56,865 nt of DNA from a virus (taxonomy: Duplodnaviria > Heunggongvirae > Uroviricota > Caudoviricetes): the IMG/VR virus record IMGVR_UViG_2938655777_000006, positions 144,983 through 201,847 of that record, one strand, 5' to 3'. Both the position numbers and the translations under genes were made by a program. Of this stretch, positions 27,606-46,110 are shown piece after piece. Each line of letters opens with the position of its first letter. Position 1 is the first letter of the stretch. The notes under the pieces were generated by a model, which searched no databases, had not been told where the DNA came from, and was given only the letters and a program-made list of their open reading frames with translations.

Positions 27606-29093
27606 CTAATCCCCACCGAGTTCAACCGTTTTCGTAGCGACACGGTCATGAAATTCCCGATCATGCTCCACGAATACAATGGTCGGCGTGTACTCAAGCA
27701 GCAGCTCTTCAATTTGCATCCGGGAAATCACGTCGACAAAGTTGAGCGGTTCGTCCCAAATATGCAGATGAGCCTCCTCACATAGGCTTCTCGCGATTAG
27801 AACCTTCTTCTTCTGACCGCCGCTAAACGTCGATATATCCTTCTCAAACTGGATGCGGGCGAAATCTAGCTTACGCAACACGGCCTTAAATAAGCTTTCG
27901 TCAATTCTGTGCTCTGCTGCATAATCGGAAAGCGTTCCTCGCAGATGAGAAGTATTCTGGGATACATAGGAAACGCGAAGCTGCGGCTCCCGCTGAAACG
28001 TTCCTGTATAGTGTAGCGCCTCATCGTTGAGCAGGCGAAGCAAGCTAGACTTACCTGAACCATTTGGACCTGAAATTGCAATCCGATCTCCTGGTTCGAT
28101 CGTCAGACTAACGTTCTTGCAAACCGCTCTTTCCCCGTAGTAAATCGTGACGTGATCCAGTATCGCCAGTTCCGAATTGGGATACACGAGCTGAGAGATC
28201 GCAAGGCTTTCTGACTGTTCGATATTTCGGAGCAGTTTCGATTTTTCCTCTAAAGCGGCGTGTTGCCGCTGTTCGATGGATTTCGAGCGTTTCATCATTT
28301 TCGCTGCCTTATGCCCGACGTAACCCTTGTCAAGCTTGGAACCGGAATTTCGTGTGCCGTTTTTTGATTTTTCGGTCTCGAAAGACCAGCCGCTAGTACG
28401 TTTAGCAGAAGCTGATAAACGCTGTATGTCTTTGTACAGCTTTTCGTTTTGTGCCATTTCGAACGTGTCCTGGCGAGTTTTGTTCGTCCACCAGCTGGAG
28501 AAGTTGCCTTTTTGGATTTCGATATTCGTTTTGTTGATCGATAGAATATGATCCACGCAGCGGTCGAGAAAAGCCCGGTCGTGTGAAACAAGAATAAAAC
28601 CGCGCTTCGTATTCAGATAATCGGCGACAAGCTTGCGTGCGTGCAAGTCGAGATGATTGGTCGGCTCGTCGATGAGCAGAAATCGATTGTCTTGGATGAA
28701 TAGCACGACCAGCAATACCTTCGTCTGTTCTCCTTGGGACAGCGATTCGAATGGCCGGTACAACACGTCTTCTGAAACCTTAAGCAGGTTCAGTTCGCGC
28801 ATCAACTTCCAGTTCTCATAGTTTGGCACGATCTCTTCGACGACGTCTAAGGTCAAATACTCAGGATGTTCGACGGGAAACGGAAAATAATCAAAGGCGA
28901 CTGGTGTGGAGATCGTACCGCTGTATTCGTACTTCCCCTGAAGCAGGTTTAAGAACGTCGTTTTCCCCCGACCGTTTCTCCCCGTAAAGCCCAACTTCCA
29001 GTCTGTATCAATTTGAAAATGAACATTTTCGAATATGGGGTCATAGCTGCCTGGATAGGCAAAAGTAAGATTGGTCACCTGAATGGCGGGCAT
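27606..29093 (-). CDS. lsa: Lsa-family ABC-F ribosomal protection protein (495 aa)
   Basis: IQVTNLTFAYPGSYDPIFENV...DTDWKLGFTGRNGRGKTT, LSQGEQTK, SGGQKKKVLIARSLC; two ABC domains, no TM segments. Confidence 0.88.
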   Translation of the reverse strand: MPAIQVTNLTFAYPGSYDPIFENVHFQIDTDWKLGFTGRNGRGKTTFLNLLQGKYEYSGTISTPVAFDYFPFPVEHPEYLTLDVVEEIVPNYENWKLMRELNLLKVSEDVLYRPFESLSQGEQTKVLLVVLFIQDNRFLLIDEPTNHLDLHARKLVADYLNTKRGFILVSHDRAFLDRCVDHILSINKTNIEIQKGNFSSWWTNKTRQDTFEMAQNEKLYKDIQRLSASAKRTSGWSFETEKSKNGTRNSGSKLDKGYVGHKAAKMMKRSKSIEQRQHAALEEKSKLLRNIEQSESLAISQLVYPNSELAILDHVTIYYGERAVCKNVSLTIEPGDRIAISGPNGSGKSSLLRLLNDEALHYTGTFQREPQLRVSYVSQNTSHLRGTLSDYAAEHRIDESLFKAVLRKLDFARIQFEKDISTFSGGQKKKVLIARSLCEEAHLHIWDEPLNFVDVISRMQIEELLLEYTPTIVFVEHDREFHDRVATKTVELGGD

Positions 29094-29383
29094 GGCAATC
29101 ATCCTTTCGTTTGGAAATAAAAAAAGAGCCGCAAGAAAGGTGCTTTCTTGCGGCTCTAATCCATACGAGGAAATACGGCCCCATTCCAAGGGGCCGTATG
29201 ACTGTCCGGAGAGGGAGCGCAAACGAAACGCAGAGCTTTCTTGCAGAGATGAAATAAAACGACCACAGCCGATCGCTGAGTCCGTTCTTTTCGTGATCTC
29301 GAAGCAAGAAAGTCCTACATGTATCCGTTCAACTCCCATCATCAAATTACATTCAGTTTATCACAATGGTAATTTAACTACAA
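29094..29383 (-). promoter_or_regulatory. lsa promoter and attenuator leader
   Basis: TTGTAG-17-TAAACT at 29383-29355; terminator GAGCCGCAAGAAAG...CTTTCTTGCGGCTC plus T tract at 29156-29119 before the start codon. Confidence 0.75.
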
Positions 29384-36094: not shown

Positions 36095-37810
36095 ATGTCT
36101 TTGAAATACGGAATAATGAATCTGCCTCTATACGTAAATAGTAGCAGCACAAACCAAAATTGTATTCATGATCTTTGTCAAAGTGAACAAGATATATTAG
36201 ATAAAGGCTTTGTCACTTATATCTACTATAATCTAAAGAAAAAAACAGTATACATAGGCGAAACAAAGCATTTTTGGGTACGTCACGACCAGCACATTCA
36301 TGAAAGCCATTTCAATGATGGCGAATTTACCAATTGCTTAATTGTTTACAATGCAAGCTTCTTTACCGAGTCCCATATCAAAGATTTGGAGTTCATGATA
36401 ATTAACCATATGCTTGCGGAAACAGACGAAACGAAGTTCAAGATATATAACCGAAATAATGGACAACCTCAACCGCAATACAGCGAGCATCACAAAGTGG
36501 AGCAAGAAGTATTTGTGAAGCTGTGGGGAAACGAATTATATAATCAAGGATTAGTACATACAAACGATCTAGAAAGAATTAGGCAGAAGATTATTTTCAA
36601 ATACTCCCCTTTCACTCAACTGAGCAAACAACAATCTGATATTGAGGAAAGAGTAATTCAAGATCCTCGTAATAAGTATCTAATTGAGGGTGGAGCTGGA
36701 ACTGGAAAAACAGTTCTCATGATGTCGCTTATGTATAGGTTGATCAACAAAAATCCAGATATGAAGATAGGTTTGATCACTACAAGCAACCTACTCGACA
36801 AGTTTAATCGAATTTTAAAGCAATTGAATTTGAAAAATAAACTTACCTTTGTTCGAGCTGGCAAGGCTATTGAGGAAGCACGCAAGAGTAATAGTCACTA
36901 CGATATCATCTTAGTTGACGAAGCACATCGTTTGCAAAGATACTACCCCAAAGGACACCCAGAATCTAAAAAACATTTCGACAAGAGTCAGCCTGAGATT
37001 AACGAAATCCACATGCTTCAAGAAATCACAGATGGACTTGTTCTCTTCTATGACCAGTTCCAGAGCATACGTCCACAAGATGTTCTTAGGGCTAACTTCA
37101 TCAAGCTCACCCAAGGATATGTAAAAGAATCTCTAAGTCAACAATATCGAATCAAGGATGACGGTTCCTTTAGTGGCAACGATTTTCTCAATGGCATCCT
37201 GTATGCTTTAGACATTGTAGATGAAATTGAATTTAATCCTAATGTCTTCGCATATCGCAACAAGGACTCTTATTTTGGAATCGTTGATTCCATTCAAGAC
37301 CTATTTAAATACATTGGAGAAATTGAACTCCGTCATGCCAATACTACAAATCGTGTTATTGCTGGTTATACTAGAGAGTGGATTTCAAACCCAAAATCAT
37401 CGCAAAATAAAGGAATAGACAAGTTTAATCTGCCTTATGATTGGGTTGAGAATGAATGCAAGTGGCGATGGAATAGCCAGTATGAAAAATGGGTTGAGAT
37501 TGAAAGTAGTAAGAATGAAATAGGCTCTATCCATGCCATTCAAGGCGCGGATATTGACCATGTCGGAATTATTATCGGCAAAGATATCGCTGTTGGTGAA
37601 AACGGGAAACTTAGAGCTATAAAAGGGAACTATAAAGATACTGGTGGTACCCCACTACTGAACGAATACAATGAACAAGAACTTACTAGTTTCATACTGA
37701 ATATATATTACGTGCTCCTCACTAGAGGAATTAGTGGATGTAGGGTTTACTTTGAAGACTCTAAAGTAAGAGAATATTTTGAAGAAAAATTATCGTCTAA
37801 AGTCATTTAA
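36095..37810 (+). CDS. GIY-YIG nuclease fused to DUF2075 (Schlafen-group-3-like) helicase
   Basis: TYIYY...VYIGET...R..QH; GGAGTGKT; VDEAHRL; IHAIQGADIDHVGIIIG. Confidence 0.85.
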   Translation: MSLKYGIMNLPLYVNSSSTNQNCIHDLCQSEQDILDKGFVTYIYYNLKKKTVYIGETKHFWVRHDQHIHESHFNDGEFTNCLIVYNASFFTESHIKDLEFMIINHMLAETDETKFKIYNRNNGQPQPQYSEHHKVEQEVFVKLWGNELYNQGLVHTNDLERIRQKIIFKYSPFTQLSKQQSDIEERVIQDPRNKYLIEGGAGTGKTVLMMSLMYRLINKNPDMKIGLITTSNLLDKFNRILKQLNLKNKLTFVRAGKAIEEARKSNSHYDIILVDEAHRLQRYYPKGHPESKKHFDKSQPEINEIHMLQEITDGLVLFYDQFQSIRPQDVLRANFIKLTQGYVKESLSQQYRIKDDGSFSGNDFLNGILYALDIVDEIEFNPNVFAYRNKDSYFGIVDSIQDLFKYIGEIELRHANTTNRVIAGYTREWISNPKSSQNKGIDKFNLPYDWVENECKWRWNSQYEKWVEIESSKNEIGSIHAIQGADIDHVGIIIGKDIAVGENGKLRAIKGNYKDTGGTPLLNEYNEQELTSFILNIYYVLLTRGISGCRVYFEDSKVREYFEEKLSSKVI

Positions 37811-42673: not shown

Positions 42674-42702
42674 TTGTAAGGAACAAACGTTCGGGATATA
42701 AT
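42674..42702 (+). promoter_or_regulatory. sigma-A promoter containing a LexA (SOS) box
   Basis: TTGTAA-17-TATAAT with GAACAAACGTTC at 42681-42692. Confidence 0.85.
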
Positions 42703-43118: not shown

Positions 43119-43147
43119 TTGCCTCTAACAAGTAACAAATATAGAAT
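43119..43147 (+). promoter_or_regulatory. Putative sigma-A promoter of the agr-like operon
   Basis: TTGCCT-17-TAGAAT. Confidence 0.55.
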
Positions 43148-43189
43148 TAAAGCATATTTGTTACCAATTATGTGAAGGGGTTATGTGTT

Positions 43190-43822
43190 ATGTGGGAGCC
43201 TATTAGGTTCTTGCTTTTCTCAATTGTAGAAACATTTGCAGCGTTCGTTTTAATGTTAACTATTTTCAGAGTTAGGGCTTTAGACTATGTATGGCCTGCA
43301 TTGTTTATTGGATTGATAATGAATTTGCAAAGTTTCATTTTAAGGGAAGAAACTTCTTTAGCTTTCTTTGCTCCAACCATAAACATTATATTGTTCACGT
43401 TATTGATAACCACTGTTGTTAGGATGCCGATTATTTGGGCAGCCATCATATCCATTACAGGCATATTTTTGTATACATTATTCCAAGCAGCGATTATATT
43501 AATGCTTTTTGGTACCTTAACAACAGAAATGCAGACCTCTGCAGAAGGATCGTTAGCGCAAGCGGTTACCAGTGCGTGGGTGTTAGCTATTTCGTGGTTT
43601 CTGTATAAATTTAAAATAGGCTTTACAGCAGATTATGAGAATCTACGTTTTAAGTGGGAGTATGTACTCGTTATTATTTTAATAATAGGAGTATTGGCAG
43701 CTTGTGCATTTATGTTTTACGTCAATAATTTCTTTTTAAGTATTCTATTTATAGCCTTAGCATCTGCCATGTTTTTGTATTATGCATTAAAAACGGAGCG
43801 TGATTACTATAAAAAGTCTTGA
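43190..43822 (+). CDS. Polytopic membrane protein resembling an AgrC sensor domain with no kinase domain
   Basis: 6-7 hydrophobic segments; ends a few residues after the last TM; overlaps agrB. Confidence 0.7.
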   Translation: MWEPIRFLLFSIVETFAAFVLMLTIFRVRALDYVWPALFIGLIMNLQSFILREETSLAFFAPTINIILFTLLITTVVRMPIIWAAIISITGIFLYTLFQAAIILMLFGTLTTEMQTSAEGSLAQAVTSAWVLAISWFLYKFKIGFTADYENLRFKWEYVLVIILIIGVLAACAFMFYVNNFFLSILFIALASAMFLYYALKTERDYYKKS

Positions 43823-44354
43823 CACTATCGCTCTTAATATTGCAACTCACATCAAAACAGTTGTCCCTGATCATCCTTCATCTATAGATGTTCTAAAACA
43901 CGGGATATCCGTTGCGATCAATACAGTTTCAATTATTTTACTGACTATCGGTATCTCGTTTTTTACGGACAGGATGCAGGAAACTTTGTTAGCGATGATA
44001 TCTTTTTCAGTGTTGCGTCAAATTGTAGGAGGGATACATTTAAAGAGCAATATAATGTGTATTGTTGTATCTACAGTTCTACTTACTGCTTTATCTTTCG
44101 CAAGTTTTAATTACAATTGGATCGTTATTACGTCGATAATAAGTATTGTACTTATCTTGGTTTACGCGCCATCGCGGATAAAGGGGAAGACACGTATATC
44201 AAAACAGTACTATCCGTTGCTAAAGTTTACGGGAGTTGCAATTGTTGCTCTAAATCTGTGGTTGGGTTTTTCGGTAGTAGCTGCTAGTTTTTTTGTTCAG
44301 AGTTTAACACTAATAGAAGGAGGTGTGAAAAATGAAGAAAACCAAACCAAGTAA
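43800..44354 (+). CDS. agrB: AgrB-type peptide-processing membrane endopeptidase (start uncertain)
   Basis: LRQIVGGIHLKSNIMC catalytic His/Cys motif; YAPS. Confidence 0.9.
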   Translation: MITIKSLDTIALNIATHIKTVVPDHPSSIDVLKHGISVAINTVSIILLTIGISFFTDRMQETLLAMISFSVLRQIVGGIHLKSNIMCIVVSTVLLTALSFASFNYNWIVITSIISIVLILVYAPSRIKGKTRISKQYYPLLKFTGVAIVALNLWLGFSVVAASFFVQSLTLIEGGVKNEENQTK

Positions 44355-44478
44355 AGTGAAGGCAAGTATGTATTACAATGTTGCTGCAATGTTGACAACA
44401 CTTGCGGTTGCATCAGTGAGTACGGCAAGTCTGTCATGGATTCACAGTCCCGAACCACCAAAAGAATTGTTAAAGTAA
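44332..44478 (+). CDS. agrD: AgrD-type cyclic lactone autoinducer precursor (48 aa)
   Basis: MKKTKPSKVKASMYYNVAAMLTTLAVASVSTASLSWIHSPEPPKELLK; RBS AGGAGG; below ORF-track cutoff. Confidence 0.88.
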   Translation: MKKTKPSKVKASMYYNVAAMLTTLAVASVSTASLSWIHSPEPPKELLK

Positions 44479-44492
44479 GCGGGGAATGTTAA

Positions 44493-44888
44493 ATGCTAAG
44501 TTTAACCGTATCAGCAGATCCCGGAGGAATAGAAAAAGGCGAAAATGTTCAAGTGGACAAAGTTCTTTTCATTTCTAAGGGGAGAAAGCGAGATCAGATA
44601 CTGGTTCACACATTTGATAAAACATACTATATGGTAGGTACCTTGAGACATTGGGAAAACTTTTTGAATTGTAACGGATTTCGCTTTTTGAATGTGGACA
44701 GAAGTAATACTCTTAATGTAGAAAAAGTGAAAATCGTTAATGGTATTTTCAAAGATGCTTACTTTGAAGATGAAATAACAAAAACATCAAAAAGGTGTCC
44801 AATCGCTTACCACCGATTTGACGAGGTTGTTGAAGAAATGGGCTTCATAAATTCAAAAATAATCTTCACAGGAGTTGCTACGAAATAG
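44493..44888 (+). CDS. Stand-alone LytTR DNA-binding protein (no receiver domain)
   Basis: GTLRHWENFL..GFRFLNVDRSNTLNVEKV. Confidence 0.75.
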   Translation: MLSLTVSADPGGIEKGENVQVDKVLFISKGRKRDQILVHTFDKTYYMVGTLRHWENFLNCNGFRFLNVDRSNTLNVEKVKIVNGIFKDAYFEDEITKTSKRCPIAYHRFDEVVEEMGFINSKIIFTGVATK

Positions 44889-45129: not shown

Positions 45130-45342
45130 TCACTCAAAGATCAGTTCGTATAAGTCTTCTATTCTACAATCGAGAGCATAGGCTACGTTAATCATAACAT
45201 CAGCCGACATTTTATCCTGATTGTTGGCCCAATTGGATATCAAATGTCTGCTGTAGCCTGTGCGCCTAGCAAGATCGATTTGTTTTATACGACGGTCTTC
45301 GAGTAACTCCTTAAGTCGGCATCTCCCACGGGAGATTTTCAA
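45130..45342 (-). CDS. XRE/Cro-family HTH regulator
   Basis: RLKELLEDRRIKQIDLARRTGYSRHLISNWANN...ALDCRIEDLY; RBS GGAGG. Confidence 0.9.
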   Translation of the reverse strand: MKISRGRCRLKELLEDRRIKQIDLARRTGYSRHLISNWANNQDKMSADVMINVAYALDCRIEDLYELIFE

Positions 45343-45945: not shown

Positions 45946-46110
45946 TCAGGATAAATTTTCAGTAACAGACTCATAGTTCTCCATGCTATTCATCTCTATT
46001 TTTTTGGAGATGTGTGCATAAACGTCGGCTGTTATTTGGATGCTACCATGTCCAAGCCACTCCTGTACATACTTCATTGTAGCCCTAGCTTCAAGTAGCA
46101 ATACCGCATG
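45946..46110 (-). pseudogene. Tyrosine integrase C-terminal fragment
   Basis: HAVLLLEARATMKYVQEWLGHGSIQITADVYAHISKK (LGH...Y catalytic region), pointing toward the att repeat. Confidence 0.9.

Follow-up and report, generated by a model that had tools for sequence, protein, structure and literature searches.

The agr system is the textbook case of peptide sensing by a two-component phosphorelay. A canonical agrBDCA locus encodes a peptide-processing membrane protease (AgrB), a peptide precursor (AgrD), a sensor kinase (AgrC) and a regulator that bears a receiver domain (AgrA). SPbeta-like phages use a different peptide system, arbitrium (AimR/AimP), in which a linear peptide is re-imported and bound by a cytoplasmic receptor. 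The phage phiCDHM1, with agr-type genes, reportedly keeps the histidine kinase AgrC and has no regulator. Canonical agr loci have been described in Paenibacillus polymyxa, including the agr locus of the paenibacillin cluster (PMC12180512, PMC13700820). In the LytTR regulatory systems HdrRM and BrsRM of Streptococcus mutans, the regulator gene comes first and the gene for the inhibitor directly follows; DUF2154 is named in HdrM (PMC6193735). Here we analyze a four-gene cassette that combines agr-type genes with a receiver-less LytTR protein. The cassette lies on a 56,865-nucleotide stretch of DNA from a tailed virus (positions 144,983 to 201,847 of IMG/VR virus record IMGVR_UViG_2938655777_000006), which is called the window below.

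The cassette and its distribution

The cassette occupies positions 43190-44888 (+ strand) of the window and consists of four coupled genes, encoding a membrane protein, AgrB, AgrD and a LytTR-only protein (Table 1). The original prediction, which was made from the sequence of the window alone, had proposed these four genes, and all four were found at those positions. Its individual assignments also held. AgrB, which had been credited with a catalytic histidine and cysteine, matched PF04647, and all 48 of the cassette AgrBs compared have the two residues (His80 and Cys87). The predicted 48-aa AgrD matched TIGR04223, the LytTR protein described as lacking a receiver matched PF04397 only, and the clean end claimed for the operon corresponds to a terminator-like hairpin. 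The 3' end of the membrane gene overlaps the start of agrB by 23 nt, and so there is no space for a kinase domain. Similarly, the LytTR gene begins 14 nt past the agrD stop codon, leaving no receiver domain. A domain search of the whole 201,847-bp record found neither a HATPase_c_5 kinase nor a Response_reg (receiver) domain. That is, the window cassette has neither the AgrC kinase nor the receiver-bearing AgrA of canonical agrBDCA.

We found that this arrangement is conserved. The original prediction had suggested looking for the four-gene order in Paenibacillus prophages, and among loci found through the membrane protein in viral contigs, genomes and assemblies (n=55), 45 have the order membrane gene-agrB-agrD-LytTR gene, down to about 30% identity, in Paenibacillus and Cohnella. 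We also took a census that started from AgrB, which is present in 91 of 121 Paenibacillaceae species genomes. The census covers 60 of about 150 AgrB matches, taken from the top of a score-ordered list with some skipped, and is a non-random sample. Seven of the 60 loci were canonical, with AgrB, AgrD, a 427-455-aa kinase and a 240-249-aa regulator; in one of them (L074), Pfam confirmed HATPase_c_5 and Response_reg plus LytTR. The membrane protein was missing from all seven. In 53 of the 60 loci it was encoded beside agrB: directly upstream in 52 of them and, in L103, on the other side. A LytTR-only gene adjoined the cassette in 45 of these 53, downstream of agrD in 44. Within the census, the membrane protein and AgrC were mutually exclusive, as were the LytTR-only protein and AgrA, and in three related genomes all AgrB loci were of the membrane-protein type. 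One gene order that recurs in about 90 independent loci puts the arrangement far beyond chance. The cassette is the commonest agr layout among the sampled Paenibacillaceae AgrB loci, both chromosomal and prophage, and is a conserved, widespread agr variant with neither phospho-module. The matched absence of the two modules, which had been claimed before, is real and conserved and not a relic.

Cassettes of this kind do decay. Paenibacillus sp. BJ-4 has two in tandem (L033:8611-11401), beside a 208-aa ORF that we take to be lexA from the neighbouring context of a second locus (H1), and the first of the two is broken, with a split AgrB and no LytTR gene. The LytTR gene of L038 is split, and L054-L056 are solitary membrane genes. 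It is nevertheless extremely improbable that the cassette as a whole is a canonical agr locus in decay that no longer functions. Its reading frames are intact, the catalytic residues do not vary, the order is kept in about 90 loci down to 20% identity, and the members of the family are short throughout. A search of 1.84 billion representatives with a profile turned up 498 relatives of the membrane protein; the best 150 of these are 88-240 aa, and none of the 150 is of AgrC or kinase length. These short family members, together with the order kept in 45 of 55 and 45 of 53 loci, rule out a deletion relic. A few distant loci (the L081-type loci and L136, below) do have kinases, which the original prediction had associated with a relic, but they retain the membrane protein and the LytTR-only gene and so do not overturn its claim.

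Table 1. Positions of the cassette genes and of putative control elements in the window.
Feature	Positions	Strand	Basis
Promoter-like site, TTGCCT-17-TAGAAT (putative function)	43119-43147	+	consensus scan
Candidate operator, perfect 11-nt inverted repeat GTAACAAATAT / ATATTTGTTAC with 11-nt gap, spanning the -10 hexamer	43132-43164		repeat search
Membrane protein, 210 aa, seven helices, stand-alone, suggested AgrC-sensor-like fold; proposed peptide receptor	43190-43822	+	
AgrB, peptide-processing membrane protease, 184 aa	43800-44354	+	PF04647, E 3e-18
AgrD precursor, 48 aa	44332-44478	+	TIGR04223, E 1e-7
LytTR-only DNA-binding protein, 131 aa	44493-44888	+	PF04397, 26.3 bits vs cut-off 22.6
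Intrinsic-terminator-like hairpin and T run, over the LytTR stop codon	44870-44896	+	consensus scan

The membrane protein as a candidate receptor

The reading that we prefer, and to which we give about an even chance of being correct, is that this is a functional agr-type cassette without a phosphorelay, in which the membrane protein directly controls the LytTR protein. AgrB would cut the 48-aa AgrD and close a five-residue ring (S-L-S-W-I, a Ser lactone), and the peptide would be released from the cell. The seven-helix membrane protein would be the receptor for the peptide, in the place of AgrC. With its cytoplasmic loops and tail, which are conserved, it would hold or release the LytTR protein, as the membrane inhibitors of LytTR regulatory systems do, and free LytTR protein would act on promoters, probably including the cassette's own. 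With no kinase in the membrane protein and no receiver in the LytTR protein, direct action of the one on the other seems most likely. Within this scheme we infer how the peptide is built, that the membrane protein is its receptor and binds the LytTR protein directly, whether regulation is positive or negative, and which genes are targeted.

The start of the membrane protein is the ATG at 43190, which follows a GAAGGGG ribosome-binding site, and most homologues share an MWEP start; the longest ORF begins at a GTG at 43172. Searches of Pfam and NCBIfam gave no match. An AlphaFold2 model based on a 19-sequence alignment has seven long helices and a mean pLDDT of 81.6. The closest models in the ESM Atlas were membrane portions of Bacillota proteins of 424-444 aa, of which 98% have HATPase_c_5, and TM-scores (by query) to the membrane parts of these kinases were 0.68, 0.62 and 0.56, with at most 200 residues aligned. 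Matching AlphaFold DB clusters were named 'GHKL domain-containing protein' and ComD (TM-score 0.53-0.58). The Foldseek E-values of the fold matches are weak (0.03-0.17). At the level of the fold, the matches suggest a likeness to a sensor, in line with the sensor-like membrane protein without a kinase domain that had been proposed. Other searches were less informative: Foldseek comparison of the model with the PDB and with Swiss-Prot models gave no meaningful match, a search of PDB sequences with the family profile gave ORMDL matches at chance level only, and a language-model atlas search returned unnamed clusters only. We also considered a CPBP/Abi-type protease (like MroQ). This was ruled out, as the protein has no conserved histidine and no Pfam match.

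Two further properties of the membrane protein bear on its role. Topology was assigned by applying the positive-inside rule to the AlphaFold2 model, and the predicted cytoplasmic loops are better conserved (column entropy 1.6-2.0) than the outside loops (2.6-3.4). Conservation is highest at E14, Q99 and Q124 within helices and, on the side facing the cytoplasm, at F26/R27, R78, G144/F145 and K202/E203 (numbered from the MWEP start). In addition, we compared the divergence of the proteins by partial Mantel tests on pairwise identity distances among 55 non-redundant loci, a soft form of evidence. Membrane protein and LytTR protein were correlated given AgrB (r 0.49, p 5e-4), membrane protein and AgrB were correlated given LytTR (r 0.60, p 5e-4), and the correlation of AgrB and LytTR given the membrane protein was small (r 0.10, p 0.03). 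The LytTR gene adjoins agrBD and not the membrane gene, so linkage alone predicts the opposite of this pattern. The pattern fits a membrane protein turned towards the peptide on one side and towards the regulator on the other. Support for the proposed binding or sequestration of the LytTR protein by the membrane protein is indirect and consists of the AgrC/AgrA exclusivity, the partial Mantel tests and the conserved cytoplasmic loops.

Several observations weigh against this. When the membrane-protein family profile was aligned with the N-terminal sensor domains of eight Paenibacillaceae AgrCs using hhalign, the probability was 0.2%. The fold matches also include a GGDEF protein, MreD and an ECF-S component, and seven-helix bundles may resemble one another non-specifically. 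Since other seven-helix proteins match too, we read the likeness to the AgrC/ComD (HPK10) sensor module as suggestive at the level of the fold and not as membership in that family. To the softness of the Mantel tests must be added the region upstream of the 55 cassettes, which yielded no shared motif and no convincing LytTR direct-repeat boxes; the best 9-mer pairs with 19-23 nt spacing scored 6.98/9, barely more than shuffles (6.57/9). The overlap of the membrane gene with agrB could mean that the membrane protein and AgrB form a complex. The LytTR gene is missing from 8 of the 53 membrane-protein-linked AgrB loci, and some chromosomal loci consist of the membrane gene, agrB and agrD only. 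That is, the membrane protein is tied more tightly to AgrBD than the LytTR protein is, which fits a role in peptide production too. Finally, some loci have kinases. Six distant loci of the 53 (L081, L083, L087, L092, L106 and L115) have one or two divergent kinases of about 450 aa just upstream of the membrane gene. L136:3001-6593 belongs to an SPbeta-like prophage and has MrpR and tubulin genes in its vicinity; here the cassette precedes a 261-aa REC-LytTR regulator and a 282-aa HATPase_c_5 kinase with only two membrane helices.

It is possible, if unlikely, that the membrane protein is not a receptor but works alongside AgrB, helping to make the peptide (by leader removal), to transport it out of the cell or to protect against it (immunity). 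Sensing would then take place elsewhere, or the peptide would act on other cells, and the LytTR protein would be a separate, perhaps constitutive, regulator of the operon. Such a partnership is consistent with the gene overlap and with the membrane gene staying with agrBD in the eight LytTR-less loci and in L063 and L073. The correlation between membrane protein and AgrB is the strongest of the three partial correlations, and the conserved polar residues E14, Q99 and Q124 inside the membrane could line a transport or catalytic path. However, canonical agrBDCA loci of the same family manage without the membrane protein. The membrane protein matches no protease or transporter family, has no conserved histidine, and has a predicted fold that resembles kinase sensor modules, and its correlation with the LytTR protein persists after AgrB is removed. 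In addition, a LytTR protein of 125 aa is too small to have a peptide-sensing domain of its own.

The loci with kinases bear on a different alternative, a split receptor, which we regard as quite unlikely. Here the membrane protein would sense the peptide and signal to a separate, sensor-less kinase or to some other host factor, and the LytTR-only protein would be an accessory or a competitor rather than the direct output. L136, with its cassette, REC-LytTR regulator and two-helix kinase, may be a split AgrC/receptor arrangement of this kind. The six loci with divergent kinases also speak for it, as do the 10-13 HATPase_c_5 matches in each of the related host genomes. In two of the six (L081 and L087), SPOB_a and HATPase_c were confirmed by Pfam, and the other four rest on phmmer; no receiver-containing regulator was found in the 8.5 kb fetched for these loci. 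In contrast, a HATPase_c_5-type kinase was absent from the 8.5-10 kb around agrB in 47 of the 53 membrane-protein-linked loci. L100 and L105 have PAS/HisKA kinases only. The 201-kb record that contains the window has no kinase and no receiver, and a strong AgrC-like orphan kinase was found in just one of three related genomes.

Signal, regulator and genomic setting

The signal is predicted to be a cyclic peptide. About 50 cassette AgrDs align with the pattern A/P-[S/C]-x3-[I/V/L], two residues, then P-[E/K]-[P/T]-P-x-E-L. Distant AgrD homologues have a cysteine exactly at the position of the ring serine in the window (CWLFV, CWAFL, CAGLL), and a swap of Ser and Cys at this position is what is expected of a lactone/thiolactone nucleophile. 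The ring of Staphylococcus aureus AgrD ends five residues before the proline of P-K-E-L. In register with it, the window AgrD would give the five-residue Ser lactone S-L-S-W-I. The alignment and the Ser/Cys swaps favour the SLSWI ring put forward in the original prediction.

The LytTR protein is closest to the DNA-binding domain of AgrA (AgrA_C). With a profile of 55 LytTR homologues, the best solved relative was the AgrA LytTR domain (E 1e-7). The AlphaFold2 model of the protein has a mean pLDDT of 95, and its top Foldseek matches were 4xqj and 3bs1 (TM-score 0.83 by target). In three loci of the P. polymyxa group (L061:2131-2841, L062:597-1331 and L070:610-1332), a 236-244-aa protein without a receiver replaces the single LytTR protein. 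Since LytTR matches fall in either half, this variant may be a tandem double LytTR.

The similarity to AgrA is also compatible with an interference device, in which the peptide would block the canonical AgrC of a competitor or host and the receiver-less LytTR protein would occupy AgrA boxes as a dominant negative. Cross-inhibition by foreign autoinducing peptides (AIPs) is well established in staphylococci, and some P. polymyxa strains have canonical agr. Nonetheless, interference seems very unlikely. Three related genomes have no AgrC-length gene in the roughly 3.4 kb around any AgrB, and the predicted ring SLSWI does not resemble ICFGLF, the AIP published for P. polymyxa. Cassettes are found mostly in chromosomes and vary greatly, for which private signalling channels are a better fit than jamming. 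We found no evidence for the earlier idea that the cassette is a jammer of host Agr signalling.

If the membrane protein directly controls the LytTR protein, the cassette's own promoter is a probable target. Conservation of the promoter region extends to related loci whose cassette proteins have diverged, and diverged promoters (e.g., that of locus L010) retain an imperfect form of the inverted repeat, as judged by eye. This repeat looks like a candidate operator for a dimeric repressor rather than a LytTR direct repeat. The cassette was also found in RNA-seq assemblies from a related strain (X5 and X7), in which contigs of 3.7-3.8 kb span it at a word depth of 155-397. These contigs include an opposite-strand helix-turn-helix (HTH) gene and the runs hold contigs of 20-45 kb, and thus DNA carry-over is possible. 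The cassette locus was not present in raw-read runs X21 and X24.

The divergence of related prophage loci resembles that of specificity alleles. L017 and L018 match the window at 77-83% identity across the yolD-like gene upstream of the cassette, the promoter and the initial ~180 nt of the membrane gene; beyond this point the cassette has diverged, LytTR gene included. In L018, similarity to the window returns just past the LytTR stop codon, at ~44895. From these comparisons, the regulator appears to diversify with the receptor candidate; in staphylococci, AgrA lies outside the variable block. The record that contains the window has a second cassette at ~74.6-76.4 kb (74,630-76,375), consisting of a membrane protein, AgrB, a 40-aa AgrD with the predicted ring SWTLI, and a ~130-aa LytTR-like protein that falls below the Pfam cut-off. 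Its membrane protein and LytTR protein are 19% and 14% identical to those of the window cassette. That is, two neighbouring prophage regions of the record hold two very divergent alleles of the cassette.

The cassette belongs to a prophage-like region of a Paenibacillus genome. Virion and lysis genes (major head, tape measure and tail proteins, holins, endolysin) occupy 4.4-32.6 kb of the window, and the cassette lies ~10.6 kb beyond this block, in an AT-rich accessory stretch with 33-39% GC vs ~45%. Downstream of the cassette and convergent with it are genes for a 70-aa Cro/CI-type HTH protein (45130-45342, - strand) and a 51-aa C-terminal remnant of a tyrosine integrase (45946-46101, - strand). 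The prophage-like element may be defective or mosaic. The cassette also adjoins integrase or repressor genes in phages Abouo and Harrison and in L004 and L134. A possible defence gene in the accessory region (36095-37810) encodes 571 aa, with a Schlafen-group-3 helicase domain (E 6e-49) and, at the N terminus, a weak match to GIY-YIG. An ABC-transporter-like gene (579 aa; 27606-29345, - strand) separates the tail genes from an anti-repressor gene.

The yolD-like gene directly precedes the cassette. It has a promoter-like site, TTGTAA-17-TATAAT (42674-42702), the spacer of which contains a perfect GAACAAACGTTC. A LexA box lies at 42681-42692; on the opposite strand, CGAACGTTTGTTCC by our own reading fits the Bacillus LexA consensus at 13/14 positions. 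Across the whole window, the LexA-box pattern occurs at the level of chance (20 found vs 19.7 expected), and only the placement of this one box is meaningful. The yolD-like gene is probably SOS-controlled, and so DNA damage could read through into the cassette.

Cassettes also occur in isolated phages, including Brevibacillus phage Abouo (gp44-gp47; also Davies and Emery) and the Paenibacillus larvae phages Harrison (genes 38-41) and Paisley. In Abouo and Harrison, the membrane protein (E 2e-18 to 5e-21) is followed by AgrB, a small peptide gene and LytTR (E 1e-10 to 6e-7). The AgrBs of the isolated phages are 26-35% identical to that of the window, and the LytTR gene is annotated there as 'peptidase'. 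These cassettes surfaced only via AgrB and family HMMs; tblastn of the membrane protein against isolated phages gave no match at E 1e-3. Other cassettes are plainly chromosomal; for example, the one in H1 is flanked by glnA and lexA, and the one in L057 has a cellulase gene as its neighbour.

The original prediction was centred on phages, and this part is weakened. In the sample of Paenibacillaceae AgrB loci, the predominant agr layout is that of the cassette, on chromosomes and in prophages alike, and so phages seem to have borrowed a host-type system. A role in phage communication is possible. In its full form, which we consider rather unlikely, the cassette would be a phosphorylation-free, pherotype-specific peptide channel by which prophages count related lysogens or phages and set induction or lysogeny. 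The receptor would release the LytTR protein onto the neighbouring repressor and SOS region, and each prophage of a polylysogen would have a private allele. If true, this would be a second, unrelated kind of phage communication besides arbitrium.

Comparison with known systems

RefSeq annotates the parts of the cassette singly. We found no description of the four-gene unit in the literature covered, which did not extend to subscription journals, and the Brevibacillus phage paper only labels AgrB. The cassette is short and self-contained and is frequent in plant-associated Paenibacillus and their prophages, and its carriers include phages of the bee-associated P. larvae and Brevibacillus laterosporus. 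It may thus influence antibiotic production, how prophages behave or how strains compete.

The cassette shares much with canonical agr, both S. aureus agrBDCA and the loci of P. polymyxa: the AgrB His/Cys dyad, the position of the five-residue ring in AgrD, a charged AgrD tail with P-x-E-L, an AgrA_C-like LytTR output, organization in a single operon and, as far as models indicate, a seven-helix membrane module with an AgrC-type sensor fold. It differs in dropping both phospho-modules, that is, the DHp/ATPase kinase domains and the receiver, and in keeping the sensor-like and DNA-binding modules. Its membrane gene is upstream of agrB and not downstream of agrD, no sequence homology to AgrC sensors can be detected in the membrane protein, and the block that differs from allele to allele includes the LytTR gene.

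With LytTR regulatory systems, the cassette has in common a receiver-less LytTR protein and a membrane protein encoded in one operon; phosphotransfer is absent from those systems and probably from the cassette. Unlike the cassette, those systems have no linked peptide genes. In the cassette, agrB and agrD lie between the two genes, the gene order is reversed, and the membrane protein is from another family, with an apparently kinase-sensor-like fold. If the membrane protein and the LytTR protein interact directly, agr and the poorly understood LytTR regulatory systems would be joined, and the latter would gain their first defined ligand.

Two phage systems are also related. Like phiCDHM1, which has agrB, agrD and agrC (PMC3901668), the window has agr-type genes on a temperate phage of a Bacillota host; in contrast to phiCDHM1, the kinase is absent and a LytTR-only regulator is present. 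With arbitrium, the cassette shares a phage-borne peptide signal, many specificity variants and a location beside lysogeny genes. It differs from arbitrium in that the signal would be a cyclic AgrD product and the candidate receptor is in the membrane.

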